A stretch of DNA of 64,000 nt, from positions 104,817,904 to 104,881,903 of the forward strand of contig NC_057717.1 of the NCBI RefSeq assembly GCF_004010195.1. The letters are read 5' to 3'. The notes beneath the pieces are model-generated. The model was not told the origin of the DNA, made no database searches, and worked only from the letters and a program-made list of their open reading frames with translations. This DNA is from Chiloscyllium plagiosum (Eukaryota). Below are positions 196 through 62,500 of the stretch, piece after piece. The position numbers and the translations under genes are program-made. Numbering within the stretch: position 1 is the stretch's first letter; each line of letters opens with the position of its first letter.

Positions 196-329
196 AGGAG
201 GAAGTGAGGTCTGCAGATGCTGGAGATCAGAGCTGGAAATGTGTTGCTGGAAAAGCGCAGCAGGTCAGGCAGCATCCAGGGAATAGGAGAATCGACGTTT
301 CGGGCATAAGCCCTTCTTCAGGAATGGAA
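196..329 (-). mobile_element. Short PLE pLTR-derived repeat (family A) nested in the Penelope RT
   Basis: Same gtgaggactgcagatgctgg...gctggaaaagcgcagcaggtcaggcagcatc sequence as about 8 other copies in the window; it splits the GTPMG/SP motif. Confidence 0.8.
289..326 (-). ncRNA. Minimal type I hammerhead ribozyme motif (family A)
   Basis: The minus strand reads attc-CTGAAGA-A-GGGC-ttat-GCCC-GAAAC-GTC-gatt: intact core, 4-bp stem II, ACGT palindrome as stem III, weak stem I. Confidence 0.65.
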
Positions 330-1285
330 AGCCCATGGGTGTGCCGTTGGTTTGTTCATATATTTGGTTGTTGAATGTGAAGTGTGTTGTGAGGCACAGG
401 TCCAGTAGTTTGAGTATGCAGTCTTTGTTAATAGGTTCCCCGTCTTGTTGTCTGTTTTGTATGTCCAGCAGGTTGGCTATTGTTTCTCTGGCTAGGGTTT
501 TGTCGATAGAGGTGAACAGTGCCGTTACGTCGAATGAGACCATGGTTTCTTCCTTGTCTATGTGTATATTTCTGATGATGTCCAAGAATTCCTGTGTTGA
601 CTGTATAGAGTGTCTGGATCCGCTGATCAGGTGTTTCAGTTTCTTTAGCCAGTTCTTTAGCCAGTTTGTGTGATGGTGTCCCTGGTAGTGACACTATGGG
701 TCTGAGTGGGATGTCTGGTTTGTGCACATTGGGTAGTCCATAGAATCTGGGGGTGTTGTTGCTTTCACAGGTTTCATTCTCTGTAGGTCCGACCTGGTTA
801 TCTGTCCGTTTTTTTGTAGGTTCCTCAGTGTGTTGTTTATCCTATTGGTGAGCTGTGGGGTGGGGTCAAACTCCCTCTTTTGGTAGGTATTGGTATCTGC
901 AAGTAGTTGGTGCGCTTTTTGGATGTACTCTGCTTTGTCCAGGATGACCGTCATTCTGCCTTTGTCTGCTGGTAGTATGATTATGTTCTTATTGTTTCTT
1001 TTAGTGCTTCCCTCTCCTTGGTGTTGAGGTTATGTGTTTGTCTTTTCCTTGTTATCAGGGGTACGATACTTTGTCTCACTGTTTGTTGTGTCTCTTTTGT
1101 CAGTCCATTGTTTTTGAGTGTGCATTCTAGTGCTGCCAGGAAGTCTGTTGTCTTGGCGTCCCTGTGATTGTCGTTGAGTCCCCTGGCCAGTATTGCTCTT
1201 TCCGTGTCTGTGAGCTGTCTGTGGGAGAGGTTTCTAACCCAGGAGTGTGTTGTGATGTCCTCTCTGTTGTGTGTTAGTTTGGTCA

Positions 1286-1587
1286 TTTTGGACAACACCA
1301 CTATCATAGGACAAGCCAAACAGAGACTAGCCAGGGAATTCCTAGAGGCATGGCACTCATCCACAGATTCAATCAATAAGCACATTGATCTGGACCCAAT
1401 ATACCAGCCACTGCAGCGGACAGCTGGAACTGACAACCGGAAGCAGCAGATACAAATCACTATAAATGCCGGAGGAAACATCACAGAAGTGCTTCACAGG
1501 AGGCTCCCAAGCACTGAGGATGTCACCTAGACAGGGGACGAAACGCCTGCAACACAAATTCCCAGCTCGGCGAACAGAACCACAACA
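1286..1587 (+). mobile_element. Inverted Penelope 3' end (endonuclease C-terminus plus pLTR)
   Basis: DNTTIIGQAKQRLAREFLEAWHS resembles the PLE GIY-YIG domain C-terminus; it is opposite in orientation to the adjacent RT; hammerhead-like motif at 1511-1550. Confidence 0.8.
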
Positions 1588-10689: not shown

Positions 10690-10975
10690 TTCTGAGGGAA
10701 ATGAAACAGAGTGAAGCAAGAAAACATCCAGAAACTAGCTGCGTCAATTTTTGTCTCCCTCCTTTCTCTGTAAAGTTGCTTTCTCTAACTTTCATTTTAA
10801 CAGGAAATGACATCACCATAGGAAATGACATCACCAACTCAAAGAAACCCAAATATATAAATAGAAAGCATGAATCATCAGCAATGCTTCGTCCGGAGGC
10901 TCATTGAAGATGTTACCTAGTATGGTGATGGAATGTCTGAACATGAATCTTCCAGCTCAGCAAGCAAACCTACCA
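10690..10975 (+). mobile_element. Old Penelope pLTR fragment (related to family B)
   Basis: Contains a tandem aggaaatgacatcacca repeat, a decayed hammerhead (tca-ttgaaga-tgttacc..ggtgat-ggaa-tgtc-tga, 10901-10940) and ccagctcag as at 1562. Confidence 0.55.
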
Positions 10976-13026
10976 TCCTTAATTTGGAATGTTTTTTTTT
11001 AGTGACTTGCTTTTCAGTGTTCTGATCAAGAGGACATTGTTATAGTTACTAACAATGGGAAAGTAAGGTGGGACTATCCAAAGGGGAATTGGGGCTGTGT
11101 TCCCTGGTGGCACATTCAGGTGAATCAGAGATAGCTCAGTCAGAAACAAAGTGTTGATCGTTTATCTCACTTTCTACTCAGCTGTGCACCTTATAACTAA
11201 TGTCAAGGGCCATGCTCTCATGACCACATACTCTGGGAGAACTAGACTGGTCCAGAGCAGTTGAAGCACTAGAAGCTTTTTTAAGTATCCAGCAGTCTAC
11301 TTGAGATAGTTTCCCCTGCAACATAGTCCTCATACACTGCCACCCATGTGCACAGATTGGGAACTGGAACAACGAGCCAATGGTTAGTGCTAGCCTTTTT
11401 AACCCAGTAGTATCCCTCTTCAGGCTCAAATAGTGAAAGCACAGGAAACGGAGGCAAAATAAAGTCATTCTGATAATTGACAGGTGTTATTATACCAAGT
11501 GAGACCACCAAATTTGTGTTACAACTGTTCCAGGAACCAATAACTTTTATTTTTCAAGTATACAAGTATAAGGTCCAGGGGGCTTCTCAAGAGAATAAAG
11601 TCACAAAATTCAATGGGTTTTAAACAAACAACAATATACCTTACTATGGAACTTTAGAACAGTAATACAATCAACAATGCACGTACAAATCATTTCTATT
11701 ATTCTGAATTAACATATAGTAAAAACTGGTAATAGATTGTGATTGAATAATCCACAGTGCACATCAAGTAGCAAAGGCAATCAAGACAGATCCCACAAAT
11801 TTCTCAGCAATGCCTCCCAAACATTAATGTCATGGTAGATTACCAAATCTTATTAAAATTTATGAATTTATAATTTTATAATTTATAAAATTTATAAATT
11901 TTAATTTTGTCAATCTTAAATCTCCCTCTCAAGAGCTGCTCCCTCATGTAATACCTCAGCAATTACTCCTATTCAAGTCAATTACGCTCCATTCCTAGTT
12001 TTTGCTCCAAAGACTGAGAAATTGCAAACGTATACTCACTCATAAGCATAATTCCAGCTCTTCATCAACAGCTAACTTCACCAAGCTAAAACTGTCCCTG
12101 GGTTTTTCCTGCATTCTCATTTTTTATTTATTCACTGTGAGGTGTAGGCATCATTAGCTAGGCCAACATTTATTGCCCATCCTGAGTTGTCCATGAGAAG
12201 GTGGTGGTGAGCTACCATCTTGAACCACTGCAGTTCATGGGCTGCTGATAGACCTACAATGCTATTATGGAGGAAATTGCATAATGATACTGCCCACCCT
12301 GAAGAATCCCCTTCTCCCCTTCCACCTCCATCTGATTAGCAACTACTTTTCAGCTTTATCTCCTCTACTCCTTTCTCCCTGTCAGGATGTAGACTTAGGG
12401 AATGGAAACAGCATGAGTCATAATTTGGAGATGTGGTCTAAACAGATAACTTGAATTTTGAATCAAGACCTTGAACACGAGTCATACACCTCCTTGTATA
12501 CTTTATCAACTTAAAATAGCAGTTCTACAAACACAAAAACATATGGTCAGCTGGGTAAGATGTCAAATTGCAGTGTTAAAATTGAAAATGGAAAGGCTAA
12601 TATCAAATCAGGTTTACAGGTTAATTGGCACCATCATATGCATTCACTTCACTGGCACATGATGGTTGTCACATATACACGTGCTAACTGCCAGGCTGGA
12701 GACTGGTACAACCCACATCAAAAGTTTGAGTGCAATGTAAATGCCATTTTGAACACAAAAAGGAATCCATAACACCAAAAATATGTGCACTGCACAATTG
12801 CATGTGGTGGACATAGAAGGATAACTTGGCAATTTTGTCTACTGAATCTGTTCTGTCATTTTTTGACAATTGTTGTTTAGCTGTTTTACTTTTAAATTTA
12901 TTTCCCTCCCCCTTTTATATACACAGAATTATTCACAACATTTGGCTCTATCATTTCCATTGCAGCAGTGACCCTTTTAAAGACAGAGATCAAAGGTTTA
13001 CTATATATTAATTGGCAATAGCTTAC

Positions 13027-13156: not shown

Positions 13157-14699
13157 CTGTCAAGAAAGGTTTAAAATAATTTGATTTATTGCACTCGTTA
13201 TTGCTGAAGCTTTGTAAAACTAGAACAAGTTTAATCATAGAGCAATATAAACTCCTGTTCACAAAAGGATCAATGTATTGATGAGAACAATAACTTTCAG
13301 TTAACAGGATTGAGATATTGGCTCAGGATCAGGAGTGGGCAGGAACTAAAATTGGCACTGTTGGCCTGCATTCTAACTCCCAGGTCTCGTCCCGTCCCAT
13401 CTCTGGGCATTTTTGTGAGGGTGATGGAAGAAGGTGGGAGAGTAGGTGGAAAGGGTAACTGGTTGGGGTAGGGCTACACACCCTAATTTGACAGGTAACC
13501 CATTAAGCTCAGTAAAAGCTACTTGAGGCCAATTAAAGGAGGCAGACATGTATTTTCCAACTGGATGATGTTCTTGCAGGCAGTGGAGCCTAGTTTATGC
13601 ACCTGAAAATAGTCTCCCAGTGGCATGCAGTAAGGAGTCAGTCCCCAAGAATAATTAGGAATGCTCCCCCCATAACTAGTTGCCTGGCTGCTAAAAACAT
13701 TGCTTACTTTAAGATCTGAAAAAGTTGGAGAGGGTGCCTTCATATTGAGGCACCCTCTCACTTATTTATGCCAAACTGCTGCTTCTTTCAAGCTGGAAGA
13801 CCTCTGATTAGCCCCCTGGTTTTAAGAGCTAATTCAGCGTAATTAATTGGATGGCAGATCTGTCTCCATGTCAATTAAGGGAGCACCCATGTGAAAATCA
13901 TGAGTGACTGTTCCAGTCTAGGAGATGGGTTTGGCATCTGCAAACATTCCTGACCTCTGTTTCCTGCTCACTGGCAAGAGCAAATTTTAGAGCAATATTC
14001 TAGCTGAGTGCTAAGAAAGCAAGAGAAAAAGATAGCACTCAATACGAGATTTGGTAAGCAAACAACAGGGAGACTAAAAGATGAGAAACAATGGGGTTAC
14101 TGAAATGGCAGCTTTGGTAATAGAAGTTTGGTGCTAGGTACTTTAATGATAACCTACTGCTGTTTTTCTAATTGATGGGTGACTGTGGTACTAAGTTGAA
14201 TTGTTAAGGTTGCATTCAGAACATGAGATTTCCATTCCTAGGTAACTACTACAGAAAGGTATTCCCCACAATGCTTACCCCACTTTACTTCGTCACTGTT
14301 CTGTAATGCCTTCTAAGAATGTTTTCATTTTGATTTTTTCCAAAATTAAGAGTCACTAGTGCTTTCCTGCCAAAATCAGGCAAGCCATTGATACAAAAGG
14401 GAACCATAACAGAAAATGAAGACCACTGCTGTTACCATCTTCCCTTCCTTTCTCTGTTCAGAATTCTGAAGGGACGTTTCCTGCCTAGATATCCTGGTTA
14501 ATTCTTGGTAATCCCAACTTGCGATCCTCTTCCAACTACGTGTTTCAAAGCAAAACACAGGAAATGTCACATGTCCTTTTAAATCCTCTCTTCTCACCAT
14601 CTAAAGTCCCAAACACTCCTCGGATTTACAAGTACTTCTTTCAATCTGTTCCACTGCTCACAATATAGTCTCCTTTATGTTATGTTTGTGTGCATATTG

Positions 14700-16090
14700 C
14701 AAGTTGGATGACTGGCTTGAAGGTAACAGACAGAGGGTGGTGGTGGTAGAGGGTTGCTTTTCAGATTGGAGACCAATGACCAGTGGTGTGCCACAAGGAT
14801 CGATGCTGGGTCCACTGCTTTACATCACTTATATAAATTATTTAAATGTAAACACTGGAGGTATGGTTAGTAAGTTTGCAGATGACACTGAAATTGGTGG
14901 TGTAGTGGACAGCGAAGAAGGTTACCTCAGAGTACAACGGGACCTTGATCAGGTGCGCCAATGGGCCGAGGAGTGGGAAATGGAATTTAACTTAGATAAT
15001 TGTGGGTGCTGCATTTTGGAAAGATAAATCAGGGCAGGACTTATACACTTAATGATTAGATCCCCTACAGTGTGGAAACAGGCCCTTCGGCCCAACAAGT
15101 CCACACCGACCCTCCGAAGAGCAACCCACCCAGACCCACTCTATATTTACTCCTGACTAATGTACCTAACACTATGGGCAATTTAGCATTGCCAATTCAC
15201 CTAACCTGCACATCTTTGGACTGTAGGAGGAAACTGGAGCACCTGGAGAAAACCCACGTGAACATAGGGAGAACGTGCAAACTCCACACAGACAGTTGCC
15301 CGAGGCAGGAATTGAACCCAGGTCCCTGGCGCTGTGAGGCAGCAGTGCTAACCACTGAGCGACTATGCCACCCCCAATGAAAAGGTCCTGGAAATGTTGC
15401 TGAACAAGGAGATCTTAGAGTGCCGGTTCATAGTTCCTTGAAAGTGGAGTCACAAGAAGACAGGATAGTGAAAATGGCATTTGCAATGCTTGTCTTTATT
15501 GATCAGTGCATTGAGTACAGAAGTTGGGAGGTCATGTTGCAGCTATACAGGACACTGGATAGGCCGCTTTTGAAATACTGCATTCAATTCTGGTCTCCCT
15601 GTTATAGGAAGGAGCTTGTGAAACTTGAAAGGATTCAGGAAAGATTTACAAGGATGTTGCCAGGGTTGAACAGTTTGAGCTATAGGGAGAGGCTGAATAA
15701 TCTGAGGCTATTTTCCCTGGAGTATGGAAGGCTGAGGAGTAACCTTATAGAGATTTATAAGGTTAGAGTGAATAGCCAAGGTCTTTTCCCCAGGGTGGAA
15801 GAGTCCAAAATACAGGACATAGGTTTAAGCTGAAAGGGGGAAGATTTAAAAGGGACCGAAGGGGCACCTTTTTCACACAGAAGGTGATGAGTGTATGGAA
15901 TGCCAGAGGAAGTGGTGAGGCTGGGACAATAACAACATTTAAGAAATATTTGGCTGGGTATATGAGTAAGGAAGGGTTTAGAGGGATATGGGTCAAATGC
16001 TGGCAAATGGGACCAGATTAGTTTAGGATATTTGGTCAGCATGGATGAGTTGGACCTAAGGGTCTGTTTCCATGCTGTATATTCTATGAC
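14700..16090 (+). mobile_element. CR1-type LINE 3' part, interrupted by a SINE
   Basis: SGVPQGSMLGPLL and KFADDT in ORF 14677..15027; C-terminus in ORF 15420..15833. Confidence 0.9.
15056..15376 (-). mobile_element. HE1-type SINE nested in CR1
   Basis: Reverse complement of the SINE at 5117-5436; aatga on both flanks (possible short TSD). Confidence 0.85.
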
Positions 16091-20771: not shown

Positions 20772-21247
20772 CTTGCAAAGATGGATCTGCAAATGGGATA
20801 TTAATAGTTGTATGATCAGGCTTCTTAGCATTTTTTGCTGGATTGTTTGGATTGGTTGGATTAGTTGGATTGGTGAGAATAAGGCTGTTTTCCGGGTTTT
20901 TGGGATTCCCAGGATCGGTAGGATTTCCAGGTGTAGTAGTTGGGGCCTTACGATTGGTTGAGTTATGGGGATTAGATGGGTTGCCAGGATTATGAGGGTT
21001 AGTATGGTTTCCAATTTTTCCAGGATTATGAAGATTGACAGGATTGGAAAGGTTAGCTGGATTTGTGACATCCTTGGTATTATTGGTATTCCTGGGATTG
21101 GAGGGTTGGGTTGCCAACTTGCTGTTTCTGAGATTGTCTATATCTTCTGTCTGTTGTCCATTCTGCCTGCTCATGTCCTGTTGCACTGGCCGAGTGGTAG
21201 AAAGGGCTGGGCCACCTGGAGCAGGCAGAACACCTCCGTGGCTTTCT
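20772..21247 (-). CDS. CACNA1A: CACNA1A exon 20-equivalent (476 nt): ESHGGVLPAPGGPALSTTRPVQQD...NP-rich...DHTTINIPFADPSLQ
   Basis: ttctag acceptor and gtaagt donor; phase 2-1; inside ORF 20725..21417. Confidence 0.93.
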
Positions 21248-22556: not shown

Positions 22557-22772
22557 TAGGAGAAGAAAGTGAGGACTGCAGAGGCTGGAGATCAGAGTCG
22601 AGAGTGTGGTGCTGGACAAGCACAGCAGGTCAGGTAGTATCTGAGGAGCAGGAGAATTGACATTTCGAGCATAAGCCCTCCATAAGGAATGGCTTTTGCC
22701 CGAAACGTCGATTTTCCTGCTCCTTGGATGTTGCCTGACCTGGTGTGCTTTTCCAGCACCACTCTCTCAATT
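22557..22772. mobile_element. Family A palindromic (head-to-head) PLE-derived insertion
   Basis: Inverted arms; flanking direct repeat ctatattagg(a/g)atc at 22543-22556 and 22773-22786. Confidence 0.8.
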
Positions 22773-22850: not shown

Positions 22851-24032
22851 TACAGAGAAACCTCAAGTATCCGAACGAGATGGTGGGGCACTATTTCATT
22901 CAGATAATTGATTATTCAGTTAATGGATTATTCGGATAATTGATTATTCGGTTAATTGATTCAATGCAACTTCTCTGGGGCTTGGGTTTTCCTTTTTACT
23001 CACTCTGCCTGTCTTACTCCCTCTCTCTGTATTAGGGTTTGTTTCTGAACAGACACACTTGTGTGTAAGGGATCTGCAGCATTGCTAAAGATCCCCGCCC
23101 ACACCCCCTCATTAGTTCAATGGGGTTGAAACAGCGAGCACTTGCTAAGTCCGCTCCCCATTCAGGAGACTAGGCAGCAGCACACTGCGCGTGAGACCCT
23201 CCCCCTGTCCGCCCTCCCAATCCCGCACCTGCACGCACCCAACACCATCTGACCCTGCCCCATTCGCCTCCACAACACCATCTGTCCCTGCTCTTCCCCC
23301 CACCCCCTCACCGTCTGCCCCCAACCCCATCTGCTACCCCCAACACCGTCTGCCCCACCCCCATTGGTGCCCCTCTTGGGCAGCCGGTCCAGTAAGACTG
23401 CTGCAGCCTTTGGGGGGTGAGTCTCAAAATCTCTCTCACACACACACATTTTACTGCAACTTTTTGACAAGCTCTCACTCTGCCCTGTACAGGACAATGT
23501 GGGAGAGATAATCTGAGGAAGGGGTGTTTAGGGTACACTCAGTGTAGAACTCCAGGGAAAGTGTAGAGAGAGAGAGAACGAACAGGCGGTCAGTCATTTG
23601 GAGACAGTGCCTGGGCTCCCATCAATGTCCAGGACTGTTCTCGGCAGCATTTCAGTAAGCTGGGTTCATTTTTAATCACTGAAAAATGTGTTGCTGGAAA
23701 AGTGCAGCAGGTCAGGCAGCATCCAAGGAGCAGGAGAATCGACGTTTCGGGCATAAGCTTATATTGAAGAAGGGCTTATGCCCGAGACGTCGATTCTCAT
23801 GCTCCTTGGATGCTGCCTGACCTGCTGCACTTTTCCAGCAACACATTTTTCAGCTCTGATCCCCAGCATCTGCAGTCCTCACTTTCTCCTCATTTTTAAT
23901 CACTGTAAACATTAGACATGAACAGTGTTGAAACAACTCTTTGATGTAATGTTTCGATCAGAACCTTGAGACCTTCTTTGAATAATCTGAAATGCGGATA
24001 ATTGATATTCGAATAATCAAAGTTCCTCAGTT
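22851..24032. mobile_element. Putative non-autonomous DNA transposon (Tc1/mariner-pogo-like)
   Basis: Imperfect terminal inverted repeats starting TACAG (about 17/25 match by eye); the subterminal motif ttcggataattgatta is repeated at 22898-22960 and near 23995. Confidence 0.5.
23682..23890. mobile_element. Family A palindromic PLE-derived insertion, nested in the putative DNA transposon
   Basis: About 80-bp inverted arms; perfect TSD catttttaatcactg at 23667-23681 and 23891-23905. Confidence 0.85.
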
Positions 24033-24157
24033 TATAACATACAATGTTATACAATATAAGGGTAGTTGACAATAAATTTTGCAATGCCTACCATGAACAT
24101 CCCTACACTGAACAATATTGTAAATGTTTTGTTAAGTCACTTTAAAACAATACATAC

Positions 24158-29860: not shown

Positions 29861-29989
29861 TGATGATGGGGCTTTTGCCCGAAACATCGATTTTCCTGCT
29901 CCTCGGATGCTGCCTGACCTGCTGCATTTTTCCAGCACCACTCTAATCTTGACTCTAATCTCCAGCATCTGCAGTACCCACTTCTGCCA
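29861..29989 (+). mobile_element. Family A PLE-derived short insertion
   Basis: Decayed hammerhead at the start; TSD atatttcact at 29851-29860 and 29990-29999. Confidence 0.75.
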
Positions 29990-44404: not shown

Positions 44405-44620
44405 CGAAAGTGAGCACTGCAGATGCTGGGGATTGGAATCAAGAGTGCTGGGATAGCACAGCAGGTCAGGCAGCATTCAAGGCTCAGGAAAATCAATGTT
44501 TCAGGCAAACACCCTTCATCAGGAAGGGCTTCCTGATGAAGGGCTTTTACCCAAAACGTCGATTTTCCTGCTCCTCGGATATGCCTAACCTGCTGTGCTT
44601 TTCCAGCACCACACTCTTGA
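44405..44620. mobile_element. Family A palindromic PLE-derived insertion
   Basis: Inverted arms; TSD cctcatttctgga at 44392-44404 and 44621-44633. Confidence 0.8.
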
Positions 44621-45701: not shown

Positions 45702-46002
45702 CAAAGTTTGTGCGAAGATTTGTAGCTCGGGTGCTCGTTGCTGTGGTTCTGTTCGCCGAGCTGGAAGTTTTTGTTGCAAACGTTTCGTCCCCTGGCTAGG
45801 CGACATCATCAGTGCTTGGGAGCCTCCTGCGAAGCGCTTCTTTGATGTTTCCTCCGGTGTTTATAGTGGTCTGTCCCTGCCGCTTCCGGTTGTCAGTTTC
45901 AGCTGTCCGCTGTAGTGGTTGGTATATTGGGTCCAGGTCGATGTGTTTGTTGATGGAGTTTGTGGATTCACAAACTTCCAGCTCGGCGAACAGAACCACA
46001 GC
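45702..46002 (-). mobile_element. Family B Penelope pLTR fragment inserted in a CR1 tail
   Basis: Reverse complement of 1360-1587; TSD agtcatagagat at 45690-45701 and 46003-46014. Confidence 0.85.
45776..45815 (-). ncRNA. Minimal type I hammerhead ribozyme motif (family B)
   Basis: The minus strand reads GCA-CTGATGA-T-GTCgCCT-agcc-AGGgGAC-GAAAC-GTT-TGC: stem I GCA/TGC, stem II, ACGT palindrome, GUU triplet. Confidence 0.72.
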
Positions 46003-47358
46003 AGTCATAGAGATGTACAGCATAGAAACAGACCTTTCGGTCTAACCCGTCCATGCCGACCAGATATCCCAACCCAATCTAGTCCTACCTGCCAGCACCC
46101 GGCCCATATCCTTCCAAACCCTTCCTATTCATATTCTTACAGGTTTTGGAGATCTCCTTACATATTTGCTTCTCAGGTTTCCACTGACTATTGGGGGGCC
46201 TATAATATAATCCCAACAAGGTGATCATCCCATTCTTATTTCTCAGTTCCACCCATATAACTTCACTGAATGATCTCCCTGGATTATCCTTCCCAAGTAC
46301 AGCAGTAATGTTATCCCTATTTGACTAAAAACTTTAACTCTCTCTCTCTGTCTACACAAATGCTGCCAGATCTGCTGAGCTTTTTGCACACTTGTTTTAT
46401 TTTTAATTTCAGACTTCCAGCATCTGCAATATTTTAATTTTAATTTAACAAAGCAGATATTTTCTTCATTTTATTAGCTTGCACTATGGTAGACGTCTTT
46501 TTGTTATAAAAAGGAACAAATTAAAACCCAGGTAACTTCCCATAGCAGATACAGATGTATTCTGAGCCACTCAGACCACTTTCCAACAGCTGATTTCAGA
46601 ATGTCTTGGATGCAAATCTCAGTACAATAACCAATCAAATGCAAATTAGTGTCAATATAGGAAATTGAATTTAAAACAGGAAATGCTGGAAATATTCACC
46701 GCAATGGGCAGCACCAGAACTTATGTAATTGTTTCAGGTCAATGACCTTTCATTGGAGATGTGATAAAAGGTTTTGACAATCGTACAATGGATATTAAAT
46801 ATCACAGGTACAACCATTGGAGATATAGGAGAATACAACTTCAATAAACAGGTCACCTCATTCTTATTGTTTGCAAAATAAAATGGAACAAATAATGTGA
46901 TTGGTCCAAACTCTATTCATCAGACAGAATAAACTTTGTAAAGATCATGGTTTAGAGTAGAAGGGACTACGTAATATATTTTTTGATTTCTTAAAAGATC
47001 TGTTATAAAGCACAAATATGGAAATCTATCACAGAACGTTTCTAATATCTGGAACAAAATCTAAGAATAATTTATCAGATTAACATTTGGGATAGACAGC
47101 TACGGGGTGATCTGACTTATATCATTACAATAATGACTTTTGGGAGCTGATAAAGCTGATAAAGATTCAGAACAAGAAGATCAAAAGAAAATACAGAATT
47201 TCCATTGGAATATCAAGAGTTCTACAAAATATGCAGTATTCACGAAAGCCACTAGGGTCCTATAGCTTGCTCTAACCAACAAGGTGTGTCCATGTTCCTG
47301 TTGGAACTGTGCCAAACAACTGATATTCAAAGGTTCACATTTGAAATGACAAGGATAC

Positions 47359-48052: not shown

Positions 48053-48446
48053 CTGTAACATTTGAAAAAAAAAGGAAGCTTTGAATCAAAACTATGTATT
48101 TCTCTTGATTTCAGTCAAAACCAAATTATGGTTTCTTTTCAAATGCTTCCCCTGCCCTTAAATGAGAGCACTGATCCCTCCTGTCAGTTGCAATTACATC
48201 AAAAATCCTTCAATGTCTTTCTTAAATAATCATTCTTTATTCATTAAAATAGACAGTGAAAGACAATTTATTTGCAGATCAAGGAAAATATCATGAAGCA
48301 ATGCTGACTTTGTTTTTCCTGCATACAGACTTTCTAGCTGATGAGAAATAGAGATGGGCTTTGCTCGTCATGGTTGTAAACTATTATATCCCAAAGTTAA
48401 AAATCACACAACACGAGGTTATAGTCCAACAGTTTTAATTGGAAGC

Positions 48447-48482
48447 ACACTAGCTTTCGGACTGACACTCCTTCATCAGGTG
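48447..48482 (-). ncRNA. Minimal type I hammerhead ribozyme motif (family C)
   Basis: The minus strand reads CAC-CTGATGA-A-GGA-gtgtcag-TCC-GAAAG-CTA-GTG: stem I CAC/GTG, AGCT palindrome, CUA triplet. Confidence 0.65.
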
Positions 48483-49005
48483 GTAGTATCCCAGTTACTG
48501 TCACTGCTGAAATATGCAAATTCTGACAAAGAATAGACCTATGATGTCTGACTGAAAGAATAAGCATTGCATACATCAAATAAGTAATCAGGCCATAAAG
48601 CATCCTGTTATTTTTAAATCCTCTCCTTTCATGTAATGTTTAAAAACAGCAGACATGATATGCTCCAGATTTCTTGCACTTTTATAGACAACCATGAGAG
48701 TTAGAGTATGTCACTTCTTTTTGTTCAGTCTTTGTTGGAATGTTAATTTTCCTCATAGATTCAAATTAGTACTAAAATATTCCATGTATGCTCAGTTTTA
48801 CTGTGACAGACATGTAACACTCCTGGCAAGGAGTCAAGGCTATCAGTCAGATAGCAAGCGAAAGAAAACTGACAAAAATTATAGGAAGAACCAGGCATAT
48901 AATTACACTGTAAAGCTACTGAATGATCATTTCAAAGCGATTAACATTCTACAGCACTGTTTAAGAAAAACAGACTGCAACATAAACTAATTCCAGCTTA
49001 GAAAC

Positions 49006-49040
49006 CATCTGATGAAGGAGCGATGGTCCGAAAGCTAGTG
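49006..49040 (+). ncRNA. Minimal type I hammerhead ribozyme motif (family C)
   Basis: CAT-CTGATGA-A-GGA-gcgatgg-TCC-GAAAG-CTA-GTG. Confidence 0.62.
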
Positions 49041-49530
49041 CTTCTAAATAAATCTGTTGGACTATAATCTGGTGTTGTGTGATTTTCAGTTTAAAAAGAT
49101 TTGTTCTTGTCAGATCTCGAACTTTTATGCTCAGCTGTGTTTGAATCATCTAGGAGAAAGTGAGGACTGCAGATGCTGGAGATCAGAGCTTACAAATGTG
49201 TGGCTGGAAAAGCGCAGCAGGTCAGGCAGCTTCAAAGGAACAGGAGAATCGATGTTTCAGGCATAAGCCCTTCTTCAGGAATGAGGAGGGTGTGCCAAGC
49301 AGGCTAAGATAAAAGATAGGGAGGAGGGACTTGGGGGAGGGGCGTTGGGAATACGATAGATGGAAGGAGGCTAAGGTGAGGGTGATAGGCCGGAGAGGGG
49401 GTGGGGGTGGAGAGGTCGGGAAGAAGAGTGCAGGTCAAGAAGGCGGTGCTGAGTCTGAGGGTTGTGACTGAGAAAAGGTGGGGGGAGGGGAAATGAGAAA
49501 GCTGGAGAAATCTGCATTCATCCCTTGTGG

Positions 49531-50298
49531 NNNNNNNNNNNNNNNNNNNNNNNNNNNNNNNNNNNNNNNNNNNNNNNNNNNNNNNNNNNNNNNNNNNNNN
49601 NNNNNNNNNNNNNNNNNNNNNNNNNNNNNNNNNNNNNNNNNNNNNNNNNNNNNNNNNNNNNNNNNNNNNNNNNNNNNNNNNNNNNNNNNNNNNNNNNNNN
49701 NNNNNNNNNNNNNNNNNNNNNNNNNNNNNNNNNNNNNNNNNNNNNNNNNNNNNNNNNNNNNNNNNNNNNNNNNNNNNNNNNNNNNNNNNNNNNNNNNNNN
49801 NNNNNNNNNNNNNNNNNNNNNNNNNNNNNNNNNNNNNNNNNNNNNNNNNNNNNNNNNNNNNNNNNNNNNNNNNNNNNNNNNNNNNNNNNNNNNNNNNNNN
49901 NNNNNNNNNNNNNNNNNNNNNNNNNNNNNNNNNNNNNNNNNNNNNNNNNNNNNNNNNNNNNNNNNNNNNNNNNNNNNNNNNNNNNNNNNNNNNNNNNNNN
50001 NNNNNNNNNNNNNNNNNNNNNNNNNNNNNNNNNNNNNNNNNNNNNNNNNNNNNNNNNNNNNNNNNNNNNNNNNNNNNNNNNNNNNNNNNNNNNNNNNNNN
50101 NNNNNNNNNNNNNNNNNNNNNNNNNNNNNNNNNNNNNNNNNNNNNNNNNNNNNNNNNNNNNNNNNNNNNNNNNNNNNNNNNNNNNNNNNNNNNNNNNNNN
50201 NNNNNNNNNNNNNNNNNNNNNNNNNNNNNNNNNNNNNNNNNNNNNNNNNNNNNNNNNNNNNNNNNNNNNNNNNNNNNNNNNNNNNNNNNNNNNNNNNN
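49531..50298. other. Assembly gap (768 N)
   Basis: N run. Confidence 1.
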
Positions 50299-50456
50299 CC
50301 TGGGCCTGCAATCTTCTTCCCGACCTCTCCGCCCCCACCCCCTCTCCGGCCTATCACCCTCACCTTAACCTTCTTCCACCTATTGTATTCCCAACGCCCC
50401 TCCCCCAAGTCCCTCCTCCCTACCTTTTATCTTAGCCTGCTTGGCACACCCTCCTC

Positions 50457-50492
50457 ATTCCTGAAGAAGGGCTCATGCCCGAAACGTCGATT
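50457..50492 (+). ncRNA. Minimal type I hammerhead ribozyme motif (family A)
   Basis: attc-CTGAAGA-A-GGGC-tcat-GCCC-GAAAC-GTC-gatt. Confidence 0.65.
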
Positions 50493-51049
50493 CTCCTGTT
50501 CCTTTGATGCTGCCTGACCTGCTGCACTTTTCCAGCAACACATTTTTAAGCTGTGTTTGAATCATGTTTTAATTATGAGATTTATTACATTATTATGTTT
50601 TAGGACTGTGGCTTTATTTCAGTGAGAAATGGAGTGAACCATGTAAACTGGTCTGAAGTCTGCTAACTGTAATTTGGGTTATTTTGATTGTTGTGGTTCA
50701 AAGGGGACCCACATTCTTCACTTGAGAAGAAGGTGCATGGTGCTTACTCTTGAAGACATTGATTGTAGCCTATGTGGTAACAGTAGGTCAACTGGAGGTC
50801 TCCACAGTCCCAAAAATGTGTTGTGCATGTCAGATTACAAATGGTTATGCTATAAACTTTCAATTTACTCCCAAGAGATACAAGAGGTGAGGTCTTAAGG
50901 AAAACTAATCAGCATTTCTACCTGGGTACCAGGTCCATGTGAGTCATGTTGCCATGGAAATTTCTTTAACCGGGGAAGGGTTTTTAAAGAGAGGCCTGAT
51001 ATCCAAGGAGATAGAGCAGATGCAGGCAACAAGATACTATGTTTCACTA

Positions 51050-51254
51050 CTGAAAATGTGTTACTGGAAAAGCGCAGCAGGTCAGGCAGCATCCAAGGAG
51101 CAGGAGAATCGACGTTTCGGGCATGAGCCCTTCTTCAGGAAAGATGCCCAAAACGTCGATTCTCCTGCTCCTTGGATGCTGCCTGACCTGCTGCGCTTTT
51201 CCAGCAACACATTTTCAGCTCTGATCTCCAGCATCTGCAGTCCTCACTTTCTCC
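51050..51254. mobile_element. Family A palindromic PLE-derived insertion
   Basis: Inverted arms; diverged flanking repeat act(a/g)tgtttc(a/g)cta. Confidence 0.8.
51106..51141 (-). ncRNA. Minimal type I hammerhead ribozyme motif (family A)
   Basis: The minus strand reads ttc-CTGAAGA-A-GGGC-tcat-GCCC-GAAAC-GTC-gattc. Confidence 0.62.
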
Positions 51255-52148: not shown

Positions 52149-53328
52149 ACATAGAGTCATAGAGATGTACAGCATGGAAACAGACCCTTCAGTCCAACCC
52201 GTCCATGCCGACCAGATATCCCAACCCAATCTAGTCCCACCTGCCAGCACCCGGGCCATATCCCTCCAAACCCTTCCTATTCATATACCCATCCAAATGC
52301 CTCTTAAATGTTGCAATTGTACCAGCCTTCACCACTTCCTCTGGCACCTCATTCCATGCACGTACCACCCTCTGCGTGAAAAAGTTGCCCCTTAGGTCAA
52401 TTTTATATCTTTCCCCTCTCACCCTAAACCTATGCCCTCTAGTTCTGGACTCCCTGACCCCAGGGAAAAGACTTTGCCTATTTATCCTATCCATGCCCCT
52501 CATAATTTTGTAAACCTCTATAAGGTCACTCCTCAGCCTCCGACGCTCCAGGGAAAACAGCCCCAGCCTGTTCAGCCTCTCCCTGTAGCTCAGATCCTCC
52601 AACCCTGGCAACATCCTTGTAAATCTTTTCTGAACCCTTTCAAGTTTCANNNNNNNNNNNNNNNNNNNNNNNNNNNNNNNNNNNNNNNNNNNNNNNNNNN
52701 NNNNNNNNNNNNNNNNNNNNNNNNNNNNNNNNNNNNNNNNNNNNNNNNNNNNNNNNNNNNNNNNNNNNNNNNNNNNNNNNNNNNNNNNNNNNNNNNNNNN
52801 NNNNNNNNNNNNNNNNNNNNNNNNNNNNNNNNNNNNNNNNNNNNNNNNNNNNNNNNNNNNNNNNNNNNNNNNNNNNNNNNNNNNNNNNNNNNNNNNNNNN
52901 NNNNNNNNNNNNNCACCACCCTCTGTCTTCTACCTTTGAGCCAGTTCTGTATCCAAATGGCTAGTTCTCCCTGTATTCCATGAGATCTAACCTTGCTAAT
53001 CAGTCTCCCATGGAGAACCTTGTCGAACGCCTTACTGAAGTCCATATAGATCACATCTACTGCTCTGCCCTCATCAATCGTCTTTGTTACTTCATCAAAA
53101 AACTCAATCAAGTTTGTGAGACATGATTTCCCACGCACAAAGCCATGTTGACTACCCCGAATCAGTCCTTGCCTTTCCAAATACATGTACATCCTGTCCC
53201 TCAGGATTCCCTCCAACAACTTGCCCACCACTGAGGTCAGGCTCACTGGTCTATAGTTCCCTGGCTTGTCCTTACCATCCTTCTCAAACAGTGGCACCAC
53301 GTTTGCCAACCTCCAGTCTTCCGGCACC
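52149..53328 (-). mobile_element. Young 5'-truncated CR1-type LINE containing a gap at 52650-52913
   Basis: Open RT ORF (PEDWRLANVVPLF..GNYRPVSLTS..YMDFSKAFDKV), open C-terminus 52231..52614 and (ACTCTATG)n tail. Confidence 0.92.
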
Positions 53329-55518: not shown

Positions 55519-55674
<156 letters not shown>

Positions 55675-55744: not shown

Positions 55745-55935
55745 AACAAAGAAGTGCAGATGCTGGAAATCAGGAACAAAAACAAACATTGCTGGAGAAA
55801 CTCAGCAGGTCTCGCAGCATCTGTGAAGAGGCAATTTTTTGGGGTCCAGTTCTGAAGAAGTTCACTGGACCTGAAACATTGACTTTGCTCTTTCTCCACA
55901 GATGCTGGCAGATGTGCTGAGTTTCTTCAGCAATT
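55745..55935. mobile_element. Older palindromic PLE-like short element related to family A
   Basis: Inverted arms (gctggagaaactcagcaggtct..gcagcatctg / cagatgctg..tgctgagtttcttcagca); decayed core ctgaagaag..tgaaacatt; relatives near 41350-41460, 46320-46430 and 46670-46750. Confidence 0.6.
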
Positions 55936-56929
55936 TTTCCTCTTGTTTTACACAGTTTTACATAGACTGTTTCCATTAAAAATAGGTATGAAGAAATTTG
56001 TACATGAAGATTGCAGCATTCTTTAATAAAAATAAGCTGTGCTGTTATACAATGCCTAAAAGTTTTTTTAAATGACATGTAGGATATACTATTCTACTAT
56101 AAATTATAACATTTAAATCCACTATAATTATAAAGTTCTACGATAATAATAGAGATCTTTTTCTGCTATAATACATTCCTACATGATTTTCTTAGGCAAA
56201 TTGAATACAATTATAGCCCATAGTTGAGTTTTCCAATTGTCAGACAGCAGCCCACCTCATTAAAATAACCTGGTCTGAGTGACCTAAATCTTTTCAAATG
56301 GCCTAATATCAAGAGGCCTGAAAACTCAACAGGAATTTTCTTTTTTCATTCACTCATGGAATGTGGACATTGCTGGCTGTGCGAGTATTTATTGTCTACC
56401 CTTATTTGCCCTTTAGTGAGTGATTTTCTAGGCCAATTCAGAGGGCAGTTCAGAGTCAACTACATTTCAGTGGCTCTGGATTCAGATTAGGTAAGGACAG
56501 ACATTTCTTCCTCTAAAGGAACCAGATGGGTTTTTATGACAATAAACAATGAAACCAATCATTAAATAATTGACTTTTAATTTCAGATTTTTATTCAATT
56601 CAAATTCCACCATTTGTTGTACTGGGATTTAAACCCAGGACTCCAGAACATTACCTGGAACTCTGGATTATTGGTCAAGTGGCAATATCGCTTCAGCCAT
56701 TGCCTCCCCTTTACTAATGACAAAACATAAACTTCTGTTTAATTATAGAGAGCACAATAAATAGCCATGAAAATGGGACTGTGTTTTGAGGCCCTAATTC
56801 TGAAGTAGACATAGACAATATTGTAGATGAAATCCTATCACTTTTTAAATCTACCTATACATAGCACAGTCCAGCCTATGTACAAACATTGCTGATTTAC
56901 AATACGTATGAATATTCTGAGGCACTCAC

Positions 56930-57139: not shown

Positions 57140-58394
57140 CTGTTCCAGGAGAAGACAACAGACAGTCAATTAATAAAAAGATCATATTAGAGTATTGATC
57201 AAAATGTCTGATGCTCCTTTTTCTTCTCCTCTCCTGTCCTGAAGCTGATGCACTACAGTTTGGTTAGAACCGGTCACTATTCAATATCCAATGTAAATAT
57301 ATAGCCTATTCAACCATAGGACAATCACAATCAAGTTGAATTCTCCCCTCAAGTCAAATCCACAAACTTTGTACATTCTTGTAGCAATCAAGAACAATAA
57401 TTCTGAATGAATTTCCAGTCTTCCTTAGCACAGATAACCAGAAGTCAATTGCAACACTGAGATCAATGCATCAACAGCGACCAATTGTGGAACCTCTGCT
57501 CTTCGAGTAAATAAATAACATACCAGATGGCATACTTAACCCGCCAAATCATTCAGGAAGCTCAAACCATGATGAAAAGTAATGATGAAGTCAGAAAAAT
57601 GTTTGACATAAATGAACATTTGTATATTTCAAAGAGCATTAGTTACTGTTTCATTGTGTCACTTTATACATTAGTGGAGATGAGATTGGCAGTTTAGTAA
57701 ATCCTTTTTTTGAAACACTTAAAACTATTCAGAAGGTTTAATGATAGTGAAAAAATACAGAGTAGCAATTTTCTACTTCCATCGTCAATTTTTAACATCT
57801 AGTACTTTCATGGACTGATTCCAAAAAGGAAAGAATGCTGATTTTAAAAATGGCCACAGCATGAGCCAGGTTTCATGAAACCAACAGTAGATGAAGTGAA
57901 ATTACCACTTTTATCAAAAGAGACTGAAACCAGTCAGGCATCAAGAAACCTACACCTTCTGTTCGATTCACACTTTCATGACAAGTTTATTCATAGGAGA
58001 TGAAAATCATCACCTATAATTATCTAGCTCAGAGGCAGTAAATACTTAGAAACACATGAATGAGCTATATTTAAAGTAACTGATTTGGCAGAGATGGATT
58101 TGTGACTGAAACTTGAGAAGGTTCTCTCTCTGCTTTCTATGGAAAGACAAAGCAACAGATAACAAAAAAAATTGGAGGAAATTCTGAATGCCTAGGACTT
58201 AAAGATACTTGCAATATTCATGGCTACTGATCCAGAAAATTTCTAACCAACTGATATTGTTCGTTAAAATCTAATACCTCAAGAACACCCCTAGGACTTC
58301 AATACTGCATATTCTTTCATCTTACTTTTGTGCTGTCACAGTCACCTTATAGCTCGGTATGTGTGTCTGTATGCATGTTTGTTGTGCCTTTATT

Positions 58395-58805
58395 ACGGTC
58401 CAACCCATCCATCCCGACAAGATATCCTAACCTAATCTAGTCCCATTTGCCAGCACTTGTCCCATATCCCTCTAAACCCTTCCTATTCATATACCTACCC
58501 AGATGCCTTTTAAATGTGGTATTTGTATTAGCCTCCACCACTTCCTCTTTCTGTAGCTCAAATCTTCCAACCCTGGCAACATTCTTGTAAATCTTTTTTG
58601 AGCCCTTTCAAGTTTCACAGCATCCTTCTGATAGAAGGGAGACTAGAATTGCAGACAATATTCCAAAAGTTGCCTAACTAATGTCCTGTACAGCTGCAAC
58701 ATGACCTCTCAACTCCTATACTCAATGCTCTGACCAGTAAAGGAAAGCATACCAAATGCCTTCTTCACTTTCTGTTTCTGTGCTGTACATCTCTATAACT
58801 CTATG
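58395..58805 (-). mobile_element. CR1 LINE 3' fragment with an internal deletion
   Basis: Similar to 52150-52650. Confidence 0.8.
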
Positions 58806-59554
58806 ACAAGAAATAAAGTTGCACTTCAATTCACTCAAAAACACCTTGTAACTGGTACTTTTTTGTTTTCTAGTAAACTACACAATTAAATTTTAATAGT
58901 TTGGAGGTGCCGGTGTTGGACTGGGATGTACTAAATTAAAAATCACACAACACCAGGTTATAGTCCAACAGGTTTATTTGGAAGCGCTAGCTTTTGGACT
59001 GCTGCTCCATCATCCATCTGATTTTTAAAAATTTTAATGGGAGTGAGCTTTTGTTTTATGCGAAAAAGAATTTACTGTAAATCCTCAGTATCCATGAGTT
59101 CATGACTCGTGAATTCAACAATCCACACCAAAACGTAAGTAGCAACAAAATTCAACATCTGTGGCAAAGCTCATGTGTCAGTGATATTTAACATGTTTTC
59201 AATCTTTTAAAGGGCTCCACACTTGTGAATTTCATCATTTGCTGGGTTCTCAGAAACAGAACCCTTGCTGTAAATTACTATAAAACATTTTTATCGTAGC
59301 CAACCAACGGGGTTGAAAAGAGGAAAGCTGATTCACTTTGCACCTGGTTCTAATGGAAGGATCAGATAGTTAGAAAATGAAACGCTTATAATTTAATCAA
59401 TTACACTCCAATACTTCACCTGTTCTCCATGTCTGAATCTGAAAGTAACAGTCATGACAGCAGGAAGATAACTTAAATTCCTCTATTTCTTCTATGAATG
59501 ACATCAGCCCAACTAGATACGAACCTAGAATTGAATACGTTAATTGGTCGCTAT

Positions 59555-62500
59555 TTTTTAATTGCTTGTGGGATATGGGTGTCACTAGCTGAGCCAGCAT
59601 CTCCTGCCCTTTATTAGTTGGCCTTGAGAAGGTGAGGGTGAGTCATCTTCTTGAACCATTGCAACCCATTTGATGTAGGCAGGCCCACAAAGGAAGTTCT
59701 AGGATTTTGACCCAGCTGCACTGAAAGAACAGCAATATTTTTCCAAATCAGGATGCTGTGTGGACTGGAGGGGAACTTGCAGATGCTGGTCTTACCATGT
59801 ATCTGCTTCCCATGTCCTTCTAGATAGTAGAAGTAGTGGGTTTGGAATGTGCTGTTTAAGGATCCTTGGTGAATTTCCCTTGTGCATCTTGTAGACAGTA
59901 CATAATGCTGTTTCTGAGTCTCAATAGTGGAGAGACTGCGTGCTTGTAGATGTGATGCCAATCAAACATACTACTTTGACATGGAAGGTGTCAAGCTTCT
60001 TGAGTGTTATGGAGCTGTATTCATCTCAGCAACTGGGGAGTATTATCACACTTCTAATTTGTGCCTTGTAGATGCAGATAGGCTTTGTTGAGTCAGGAGA
60101 TGTGTCACTCACTGCAAGGTTCTTAGTCACTGACCTGTTCTTGTAGCCATAGTATTTATTTGACCATTCCTGAAGAAAGGCTTATGCCCGAAACGTCGAT
60201 TCTCCTGTTCCCTGGATGCTGCCTGACCTGCTGCGCTTTTCCAGCAACACATTTTCAGCTATTTATTTGACTAGTTCTGTTCAGTTTCTGGGCTGCAGGA
60301 TGTTGACAGTTGGGGTTTCAGTGAAGGTCATGCCATTGAATGTCAAGAAATGATGGTTAGATTTCTTGTTGGAGATAGTTATTTCCATGCTACTATGTAG
60401 CATGAGTGCCACTAGTCAGCTTGTCCAAGTATTGCTGCATTTGGACATGGACTGATTCAGTAGCTCAGGAATCATGAATAGTGAACATTGTGCAGTCATC
60501 AGAAAACATCCCACTTTTGACCTTACAATTGAGAGAAGTAATTGATGATACAGCTGAAGATATTTGGACCTTGGAACCTACCCTGAAAAAACCCTGGCAG
60601 TGATGCCCTGGATCTGAGATGACTGATGTCCAGCAACTACAACCATCCTCCTTTGTGCTAAGTATGATTCCAACCAATAGAGTTTCCCCCCTGATTCCAG
60701 TTGGCTCTAGTTTCACTGAGGCTGCTTGATGCACACTTGCTTAAATATGAACTTGATGTCAAGATCAACCACTCACACCTCATCTCTGGAGTTTTTGAGA
60801 ATACGTCATCAGTATTATTGGTGGAATGTTGTCAAGGCCCATAGCCTTTATGGTATCCATTGCCTTTAGCAACTTATTGATGTCATGTGGAATGAACTAA
60901 ATTGCCTGAAAATTGACATCTGTGATGCTGGGAATCTCTGGTGAAGGCCAAGGTAGATCATCCATTCTTATTTTCTGGATGGAGACTATTGCAAATGTTT
61001 CAGCTTTATCTTTTGCACTAATGTGCTACTTTCACTATTTTTGAAGTTGGGGATGATGTGCATTCCCCACTGAATTCTTTGATTGTCCACATCATTCACA
61101 ATTGGATGTGGCAGATTTGTGGTGCTTAAATCTGATCTGTTCATTGTGGAATCACTTAGCTCTTAGATTCAAAGGTGGACACTACATCATTTGATACGCC
61201 GGGTGCTTCTCCTGGCATGCACTTCTACACTTTTCTTTGAACAGGGCCAATCTCCCGAATTAATGGTCATGGTAGAGTGGGCAATATGCCAGGCCATGAG
61301 GTTATAAGTTGTGTTAGAGTAGAATTCTGCTGCTGCTATTGGCCTACAGCAGCTCATGGATGTCCAGTCTTGAGTTGCTAGATTGTTTGAAATCAATCCC
61401 ATTTAGTACAGTGATAGTGCCACACAACAATGTTTGAGAGTATCTGCAATGTGAAGATGGAACTTTGTTTTCACAAGGATTGCATGGTTGTACTGTCATG
61501 GACAGATACATTTGCAGCAGGAAGACTCGTGAGGATGACATGAAGCTTGTTTTCCTCTCACCACCTGCTGTAGGCCCAAACTAGCAGCTAAGTTCTTTAG
61601 GACTCAACCAGCTCAGTCAGTGCCAACACTCTTAGTGATGGACACTGAAGTCCCACACCTAGAATATGTTCTGTGTCCTAGCTATCCTAAGTGCGTCCTT
61701 AAAGTGGTGTTCAATGTGGAGGAGCACTGATTCATCAGCTGAAAGAATTAATTGATTAGGGGTTGGGAGGGATGGGGTGTCGGGGTGGTAGGTGAGGTAA
61801 TCAGCAGGGTCCTTTTTTGCTCATGATTTACCTGATACGATGAAACTTCATGGTGTCCAGAATCAATTTTGAGGATTCCAGGTGGAAGTGAGGACTACAG
61901 ATGCTGCAGATTAGAATCAAGAGTGCGATGCTGGAAAAGCACAGCAGGTCAGGCAGCATCCGAGGAGCAGGAGAATTGAGGATTCCAGGGCAAGTCCCTC
62001 TCAATTGTATATCACTGTGGTGCTTCTCTGTTAGGTCTTTCATGCCAGTGGGACGGGAAATGCCAAGGGATGGTGATGGTACTATCTGGGACATTGCATG
62101 TAGTGTAAGATTCCATGTGTATGACTATGTCAGTCTGCTGATTGACTAGTCTGTGAAATAGCTCTTCTAATTTTGGCACTCGCCTCCAGATGTTGGTAAG
62201 AAGGACTTTGCAGAGTTGAAAGGGCTGATTTTTGATAATATTGTTGCTGCTGCTTCTTAGAATGGCAAATAGTCCATCTGATTTCATTCCTTTTTTGAGG
62301 CTTTTTAGTGGTTGATAAATAGCTTGCTAAGTCATTTCAGAAGACAGCTGAGAGTCTGGAGTCACGTATAGGCCAGACAAGGTTATAGATGGCTGTTTTC
62401 CTTCCCAAAAAGGACATTAGTGAACCAGATGGATTTTTACAATAATTGGCAAAACTTTCACAGTCATCATTTGATTTCTAATTCCCAATTTTTATCAAAT

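Follow-up and report, generated by a model that had tools for sequence, protein, structure and literature searches.

The stretch analyzed here (the window) comprises 64,000 nucleotides from the carpet shark Chiloscyllium plagiosum (contig NC_057717.1, positions 104,817,904 to 104,881,903; coordinates below count from its first letter) and lies inside the CACNA1A gene, which is carried on the minus strand. An initial annotation, made from the letters alone, had placed the window in this gene, and the open reading frame (ORF) at 24145-25104(-) bears this out, since it matches the P/Q-type alpha-1A chain 8x90_A with an E value of 2.7e-71. That ORF is a long coding exon that corresponds to the channel's II-III loop region, and a second long coding piece, 20728-21429(-), is presumably the following CACNA1A exon. 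The initial annotation had also described several families of minimal hammerhead ribozyme motifs scattered through the introns and had related them to Penelope-like elements (PLEs). We reach the same reading, for the family called B through its link to an ORF and for families A and C through a PLE insertion signature. At a probability of roughly 85%, the motifs are minimal type I hammerhead modules at the 3' ends, that is, in the pseudo-long terminal repeat (pseudo-LTR) region, of several PLE families that have been greatly multiplied in this shark genome, and the intronic copies are dead insertion products and not working ribozyme genes.

Hammerhead motifs in the window

Upon re-reading the sequence, we found the family A motif, CTGAAGA-A-GGGC/GCCC-GAAAC-GTC, as annotated at 298-321(-), 50461-50484(+), and 51115-51138(-), and the site at 60170-60197(+) has the single stem II mismatch ascribed to it. 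Both family C copies, 48447-48482(-) and 49006-49040(+), likewise read as described. Of the two family B copies, the one at 45776-45815(-) had been given correctly, while the one at 1511-1550(+) had been mis-transcribed: it reads CTGAGGA and not CTGATGA, and GAAAC-GCC in place of GAAAC-GTT. With GCC standing for GTT, this copy has lost its cleavage triplet and is degenerate. Every site listed in the annotation lies where it was placed and on the strand given, and its count of at least three families agrees with the three that our strict descriptor yields (see below).

The window also holds copies beyond those first listed. Self-BLAST reveals 14 family A arms, more than had been noted, and decayed family A hammerheads lie at 49255-49278(-), 44499-44522(-), 44533-44556(+), and 29860-29884(+). 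A third, decayed family C copy occupies approximately 58897-59016(-); a relaxed scan recovered an old and diverged B-like copy at 10904-10933(+), whose homology to family B was judged by eye; and self-BLAST points to a fourth, A-related palindromic family at 55755-55952. The features are as follows, inverted pairs and palindromes being listed without a strand.

1..1289, minus strand: broken PLE; N-terminal domain and reverse transcriptase (RT) as far as YVDD, split over at least 5 reading-frame pieces; runs off the start of the window.
197..330, minus strand: family A long form of 134 nt inside the PLE RT coding sequence; intact-looking hammerhead at 294-326; strict descriptor match.
1290..1587, plus strand: inverted 5'-truncated PLE 3' fragment; C-terminal codons of the endonuclease, degenerate family B hammerhead at 1511-1550, and about 45 nt beyond it.
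10880..10990, plus strand: old, diverged B-like 3' end; decayed hammerhead TTGAAGA ... GGAAT-GTC, from the relaxed scan and by-eye homology.
22564..22762: family A inverted pair; long arm minus, short arm plus; cores decayed.
23684..23889: family A inverted pair; short arm minus, long arm plus (TTGAAGA, GAGAC); 98% complementary.
29869..29984, plus strand: family A long form of an older subfamily, TTGATGA-T-GGGGC..GCCC-GAAAC-ATC.
44408..44613: CpG-decayed family A inverted pair (CTGATGA subfamily); long arm minus, short arm plus.
45739..46003, minus strand: 5'-truncated PLE 3' fragment with the intact family B hammerhead at 45776-45815, a strict descriptor match; a 35-nt stretch of the fragment's 3' end, inverted, precedes it at 45969-46003.
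48400..48487, minus strand: family C short form; intact hammerhead at 48447-48482; strict descriptor match.
49004..49086, plus strand: family C short form; intact hammerhead at 49006-49040; strict descriptor match.
49153..49530, minus strand: family A long form preceded by about 160 nt of 3' untranslated region (UTR) and by the last 31 ORF codons at the gap; hammerhead at 49255-49278 CpG-decayed.
50299..50545, plus strand: family A short form sharing that upstream 3' UTR; intact hammerhead at 50457-50492, a strict descriptor match; inverted partner across the gap.
51050..51254: family A inverted pair; minus short arm with an intact hammerhead at 51106-51141, a strict descriptor match; plus long arm lacking the 5' core.
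55755..55952: palindromic element of the fourth, A-related family; degenerate CTGAAGA ... GGACC-TGAAAC-ATT-GAC; 76% identity to the family A tail region.
58897..59016, minus strand: decayed family C hammerhead in a long form, tail about 34 nt.
60164..60260, plus strand: family A short form; hammerhead at 60170-60197 with one stem II mismatch.
61881..61992, minus strand: older family A long form, 5'-truncated within the hammerhead.

In the pair at 44408..44613, position 44549 is a G in most genomic copies, as judged from the contigs of a DNA sequencing run, and this base restores the stem II pair.

The family B hammerhead and its reading frame

The broken PLE at the start of the window aligns by eye, through its pieces 265-693 and 2-226, to a shark protein, P0001, and the fragment at 1290-1587(+) abuts this PLE head-to-head. 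The family B ORF ends in ...LPSTEDVT or ...LPSTDDVA, and the hammerhead overlaps the last codons such that the stop codon (TAG in the 1290-1587 copy) falls in loop II. When the 80-amino acid ORF end of that copy was used as a query, 8 proteins matched with E values of 0.01 or lower, the best of them (the C-terminus of P0001) at 89% identity. The matching proteins come from Chiloscyllium punctatum, Hemiscyllium ocellatum, and Rhincodon typus, all of which are carpet sharks. P0001 is 463 amino acids long, spans the window's RT pieces, continues into a block reading VVYKIPCKDC..YIGQTGRQ..IHEH, and ends at the same residues as the family B ORF. Its Pfam RVT_1 match falls just under the cut-off (E value 3.3e-6; 27.4 bits versus 29.6), and look-alike clusters in the Atlas carry HTH_animal, RVT_1, and GIY-YIG (score 0.96). 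A profile search of the PDB, with the shark PLE proteins as queries, had 0 matches, and a tblastn search of the window with the PLE pieces found no additional coding copies. Because the motif overlaps the stop codon of an ORF for an RT and a GIY-YIG-like domain, family B appears to be the 3' end of a PLE, which is where a hammerhead would be expected.

P0001 also bears on the family A unit at 197-330(-). The protein reads GTPMG-SPIFGL without a break at the place where the window has 134 nt in between, indicating that this unit is a nested insertion. At 1284-1291, the full-length-looking PLE on the minus strand starts essentially at its ATG, about 5 nt from the inverted 3' fragment, suggesting that this element family is nearly without a 5' UTR of its own.

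Significance of the motifs and their hammerhead features

We searched the window with two descriptors. The loose one, consisting of the core, a stem II of at least 3 bp, and GAAA, finds 9 sites, compared with a mean of 1.19 in 200 dinucleotide shuffles. This test is weak when taken alone, since the 9 sites amount to only 3 independent families and 23 of the 200 shuffles contain 3 or more sites. The strict descriptor specifies the core boxes, 0-1 extra base after A9, a G10.1-C11.1 pair, a stem II of at least 3 bp, a palindromic A-N-N'-U, H17, and a helix I of at least 2 or at least 3 bp. It was set after the data had been inspected, with terms taken from the traits of published PLE hammerheads (PMC4209133), and was compared with 1000 dinucleotide shuffles and with the reversed sequence. 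With a helix I of at least 2 bp, it finds 6 sites in 3 families; with at least 3 bp, it finds 3 sites in 2 families. At neither setting does any of the 1000 shuffles or the reversed sequence contain a single site. In the study that supplied these traits, by Cervera and de la Pena, the extra base, the G10.1-C11.1 pair, and the 15.2-16.2 palindrome emerged without being searched for (PMC4209133).

Families A, B, and C all carry these three features. At the 6 strict sites, the core boxes C3-A9 (CUGANGA) and G12-A14 (GAA), followed by A15.1, are intact in all 3 families, and other copies show decay of the CpG type. An offset of 1 nt, corresponding to an unpaired nucleotide between A9 and G10.1, is needed at each of the 6 sites; this nucleotide is A in families A and C and U in family B. 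The G10.1-C11.1 pair, which the strict descriptor requires, closes helix II in every family. None has a helix III hairpin, and its place is taken by a palindrome, ACGU-C in family A, ACGU-U in family B, and AGCU-A in family C, which supplies U16.1 and H17. Helix II of family B extends over 7 positions, including one G.G mismatch.

Variation among copies was also considered. The most variable positions in family A are N7 (6/9) and loop II (83%), as a hammerhead would allow, albeit in small numbers. The stems of family A show no covariation within the window, where copies are few. Across the 3 copies of family C, the inner pair of stem II reads U-A, C-G, or C.A, which is no more than suggestive of compensation in so few copies. 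A type III reading of the palindromic family A copies was rejected, since the helix I segment lacks self-complementarity by eye, though the long outer helix could replace helix III.

Ends and arrangement of families A and C

Measured against the 134-nt unit, 8 of the family A arms are long, reaching position 129-134, and 6 are short, reaching 90-100, the two ends differing by 34-44 nt. Family C comprises 2 short copies and 1 long copy whose tail is about 34 nt. Each copy is a 5'-truncated 3' end that consists of the hammerhead, a further 45-65 nt or so, and an optional tail of about 34-44 nt. Four family A pairs are tightly inverted, with arms 2-19 nt apart, and a fifth flanks an assembly gap at 49531-50298; one long and one short arm make up the pair in 5 of 5 cases. 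Inverted, 5'-truncated neighbors are found in the PLE 1-1289/1290-1587, in the 35-nt family B piece, in the 4 family A pairs, and in the pair at the gap. Direct head-to-tail tandems of A, B, or C units are absent from the window, a result that does not extend to the rest of the genome.

Contigs from the DNA run show the same two ends. Past the short family C end (place 48392), 747 DNA contigs continue, and their consensus (agreement 0.45) resembles the long-copy tail by eye. Joints in this run connect the short family A end (44615-44621) with the start of the tail (49182-49188). Among the joints listed for the sequencing runs, all are long-form continuations and not back-joins. More than 3000 DNA contigs end at 49151-49153, the end of the family A long form, and their flanks are AT-rich with no shared consensus.

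This arrangement resembles what has been published for PLEs. Craig et al. describe PLEs as often 5'-truncated, with an inverted truncated copy adjacent at the 5' end and with resulting trouble in assembly, and as carrying a tail of 30-40 bp, often at one end only, a pattern not seen with LINEs (long interspersed elements) (PMC8557442). For the PAc element of Anolis, the tail has been explained by two adjacent internal reverse-transcription starts and by AT-rich targets (PMC11167929).

For families A and C, the case for a PLE origin is built on the motif and this insertion signature, because the ORF at the gap could not be linked to an RT-GIY-YIG protein. The 31-amino acid family A ORF end, searched against 1.84 billion representatives, matched one unrelated repetitive protein of 2640 amino acids; a protein search with the 72-amino acid read-through frame of the family A 3' UTR was empty; and metagenome contigs contained 0 exact-pattern matches to the family A hammerhead. 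The gap itself (49531-50298, 768 N) lies between inverted family A copies that share 251 nt, which fits the published remark that tandem and inverted PLE structures break assemblies.

Two further observations concern these families. The family C copies 48400-48487(-) and 49004-49086(+) are divergently oriented, with 516 bp of single-copy DNA between them, and have the same element start, a few bases before the hammerhead. At 16110-16520(+), degenerate ORF pieces are followed by sequence like the family A post-hammerhead region, and we take this, by eye, to be possibly an old A-type PLE 3' fragment from which the hammerhead has been lost; a protein search with its degenerate, endonuclease-like ORF piece at about 16110-16253 returned nothing.

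Abundance and representation in RNA

The high copy number claimed in the initial annotation has qualitative support from contig depth in the DNA run (X1), which is 1.2-5.5 million on bins of families A, B, and C versus about 40-77 on most unique bins; summed contig depth is not a copy number and is read here only as very high copy. An expansion of Penelope-like elements in introns is described for the whale shark in a preprint (10.1101/443036).

The repeats are also present in RNA contigs and in raw single-cell reads, and 8101 of the 12,955,460 reads of run X21 matched the window. Run X22, with 0 matching reads out of 8,328,510, is uninformative. In poly(A)-primed RNA reads, long T or A runs appear as loose ends, with 396, 314, and 319 reads at 48419-48422 and 49067, which are the same family C position. 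This position lies 33-36 nt past the hammerhead site, downstream of ATTAAA or AATAAA, and its recurrence in both family C copies indicates that family C contains a polyadenylation site in actual use, whether by transcripts of the element or by host mRNAs. With respect to CACNA1A, 4 of the 6 intact sites lie in the sense orientation, no close pair of one family occurs on that strand, and the two intact family A sites on it are about 50 kb apart. Because no two intact sense copies of the same family lie close together, an effect on CACNA1A pre-mRNA is unlikely.

Other repeats occupy the window as well. A CR1/L2-like LINE remnant with an RVT_1 match and, by eye, typical C-terminal motifs lies at 14605-15833(+). 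It is followed by a short repeat at 15960-16093 that recurs at 46003-46135, 52155-52286, 58393-58498, 43613-43753, and 63305-63432 and has the second-highest depth bin in the DNA run, behind family A. Sub-threshold Rfam matches to mir-680, HIV RRE, and MIR6457 at 23717-23814, 51055-51213, and 55764-55952 were rejected as artifacts of the long hairpins formed by inverted pairs of PLE 3' ends.

Weighing of the evidence and of alternative explanations

Several results weigh against a PLE hammerhead origin. The Rfam Hammerhead_1 search that the initial annotation had proposed as a check gave no match in the window, and neither did the other hammerhead models (Hammerhead_3, II, HH9, and HH10), whether at the gathering threshold or at E values up to 10. 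Helix I is 2 bp in family A and 3 bp in families B and C, versus a published consensus of 4-5 bp, while helix II, published at 6-8 bp, is 4 bp in family A and, in family C, 3 bp followed by a G.G mismatch and then 1 bp. A helix I of 2 bp is found in the PLE hammerhead of Drosophila virilis (PMC4209133). For segments of 42-48 nt, the minimum-energy fold given by RNAcofold is not the hammerhead dimer, and the pairing in family A is taken over by an imperfect palindrome, GAAACGUCGAUUC, that competes with it; this result is itself weak because the energy model omits the tertiary contacts of the core. The GIY-YIG match is below the Pfam threshold (15.2 versus 22.6 bits) in 1 of the 4 proteins scanned, with the motif visible by eye, and no tool that we used tied families A and C to a PLE ORF. 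There is no excess of read starts or ends anywhere in run X21, which is poly(A)-primed single-cell data and ill-suited to detecting cleaved or circular forms. Finally, the initial annotation had stated that a core no more conserved than its flanks would speak against it, and among the 14 family A arms, conservation is 92.8% in the core versus 91.3% downstream, so that the core shows no excess. We do not take this as a refutation, because the copies are dead and are losing CpGs, of which CCCGAAACGTCG has three; selection would act only on master copies.

Some of these same results favor a different view, in which the motifs do belong to PLE 3' ends, yet their fold does not self-cleave and is kept as a recognition or folding element for the RT-endonuclease or, in family B, partly by coding constraint, with RNA cleavage needless for transposition. 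We regard this as a serious possibility, although one we are inclined to doubt. In the Anolis PLE, catalytic hammerhead mutants left in vitro insertion unaffected, cleavage needed protein, and no RNA-seq ends were seen at the site (PMC11167929). The lack of a read-end pile-up, the very short helix I, the RNAcofold outcome, and the coding nature of the 5' half of the family B motif point the same way. Yet three families unrelated in sequence keep all catalytic core positions, the G10.1-C11.1 pair, and a palindrome that places U16.1 and H17, which is hard to account for without selection for the fold in master copies; the positions that vary most, N7 and loop II, are the ones left free by the fold; and weak cleavage in dimeric form has been published for PLE minimal hammerheads (PMC4209133).

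That families A and C are not PLE products at all, but SINEs (short interspersed elements) or hairpin repeats resembling MITEs (miniature inverted-repeat transposable elements), mobilized by other machinery such as CR1/L2-type LINEs and holding or having captured a hammerhead-like segment, is a view we hold to be quite improbable. It gains from the lack of a linkable PLE ORF, from the LINE remnant in the window, from the long perfect hairpins that family A often forms in the manner of foldback elements, and from the fact that 2 solo A copies and 3 of 3 C copies start within a few bases of the hammerhead, as discrete short elements would. However, two ends 34-44 nt apart, a single tailed arm in every pair, and adjacent inverted truncated copies have been described as specific to PLEs and foreign to LINE target-primed insertion (PMC8557442). 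Long A copies moreover include an ORF end and roughly 160 nt more on the upstream side, expressed C copies mostly extend upstream with conserved sequence (loose end at 48487), and the special features of the motif in the PLE-linked family B recur in families A and C. A chance origin, with core-like words in abundant repeats merely amplified by copy number, would suit the loose-descriptor shuffles and the empty Rfam search; the strict descriptor, with no shuffle matching against 3 families observed, and the position of family B exactly where PLE hammerheads are expected make it scarcely credible.

Proposed mechanism and implications

Under our preferred reading, that of PLE 3' ends with hammerhead modules, two hammerheads in the transcripts of master copies would pair through their ACGU or AGCU palindromes and so build helix III (PMC4209133). 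Once paired, the motifs may cut after GUC, GUU, or CUA, in a reaction that would probably be slow and might require PLE protein, as published work suggests (PMC4209133; PMC11167929; PMC6765202). The RT-endonuclease would nick AT-rich DNA and begin reverse transcription downstream of the hammerhead, at either of two sites, giving rise to short and long ends. Solitary intronic copies, having no partner, would decay neutrally and so probably have no effect on host pre-mRNA.

It is also conceivable, though we think it unlikely, that the minimal transposable unit of the carpet-shark PLEs has shrunk to a SINE-like module of about 95-134 nt that starts 4-7 nt before the hammerhead core, ends at one of the two RT starts, and exists in very high copy. 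If so, the hammerhead and its tail would constitute the whole cis-requirement for mobilization by PLE protein, and the discrete 5' end by helix I would imply that a hammerhead-linked step other than cleavage at H17 sets the 5' end of the RNA. In that case, pre-mRNA might now and then be cut by intact sense copies that pair within long neuronal introns.

For annotation, the PLE 3'-end reading means that very abundant shark repeats of 90-130 nt, together with the long hairpins that they form, should be read as PLE 3' ends. For PLE biology, the natural variants, namely short and long ends and inverted pairs, could be used to probe the two-start-site model of reverse transcription. These families could also tell whether hammerhead variants with a very short helix I cleave.

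Comparison with known systems

To our knowledge, PLEs always carry hammerheads, and dimer cleavage by PLE minimal hammerheads was reportedly the subject of work by Lunse et al. in 2016/17. The motifs in the window have the same catalytic core and the same type I topology as Rfam Hammerhead_1 (RF00163) and related models, but those models expect a helix III hairpin and longer helices, and the window matches none of them even at E values up to 10. Non-LTR retrozymes resemble the shark copies in being short and non-coding, in carrying type I hammerheads, and in their relation to PLE pseudo-LTRs (PMC7229834; 10.64898/2026.07.22.740005), and both retrozymes and PLEs were found in the one chondrichthyan among the 31 vertebrates surveyed in the latter work. 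Retrozymes, however, are head-to-tail tandem units that give rise to circular RNAs, whereas the window contains solo and inverted copies only, and in Xenopus they are depleted from introns (10.64898/2026.07.22.740005), while the shark copies are intronic. Because tandem units are absent from the window, families A, B, and C do not qualify as retrozymes, strictly speaking.

Another counterpart is the Poseidon element PAc of Anolis carolinensis, which combines RT and GIY-YIG with a hammerhead, as family B probably does, favors AT-rich targets, has two adjacent RT starts that explain an optional tail of 30-40 bp, and yields no RNA-seq ends at the hammerhead (PMC11167929). The PAc hammerhead overlaps the start of the ORF, unlike that of family B, which overlaps its end, and the biochemistry belongs to PAc only.

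Canonical PLEs differ from the copies described here in having a tandem pseudo-LTR, none of which occurs in the window. With the published minimal hammerheads of PLEs (PMC4209133), the shark motifs share the CUGANGA and GAAA boxes, the unpaired base between A9 and G10.1, the G10.1-C11.1 pair, and the 15.2-16.2 palindrome in place of the helix III hairpin. They also share the occurrence of several unrelated families per genome, mostly as solo copies, the presence of opposite-strand pairs 100-700 bp apart, and, for family B, a location at PLE ends. They differ in having a helix I of 2-3 rather than 4-5 bp, in a stem II that in families A and C falls below 6-8 bp, and in the family B hammerhead spanning the stop codon of its ORF. 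Cartilaginous fishes are not mentioned in that study (PMC4209133), and we found no published description of shark-specific PLE hammerheads, although its supplements and those of the 2026 preprint may list shark families. The pairing of PLEs with hammerheads has already been described in other animals, and our results mostly confirm this known biology in a new host lineage.

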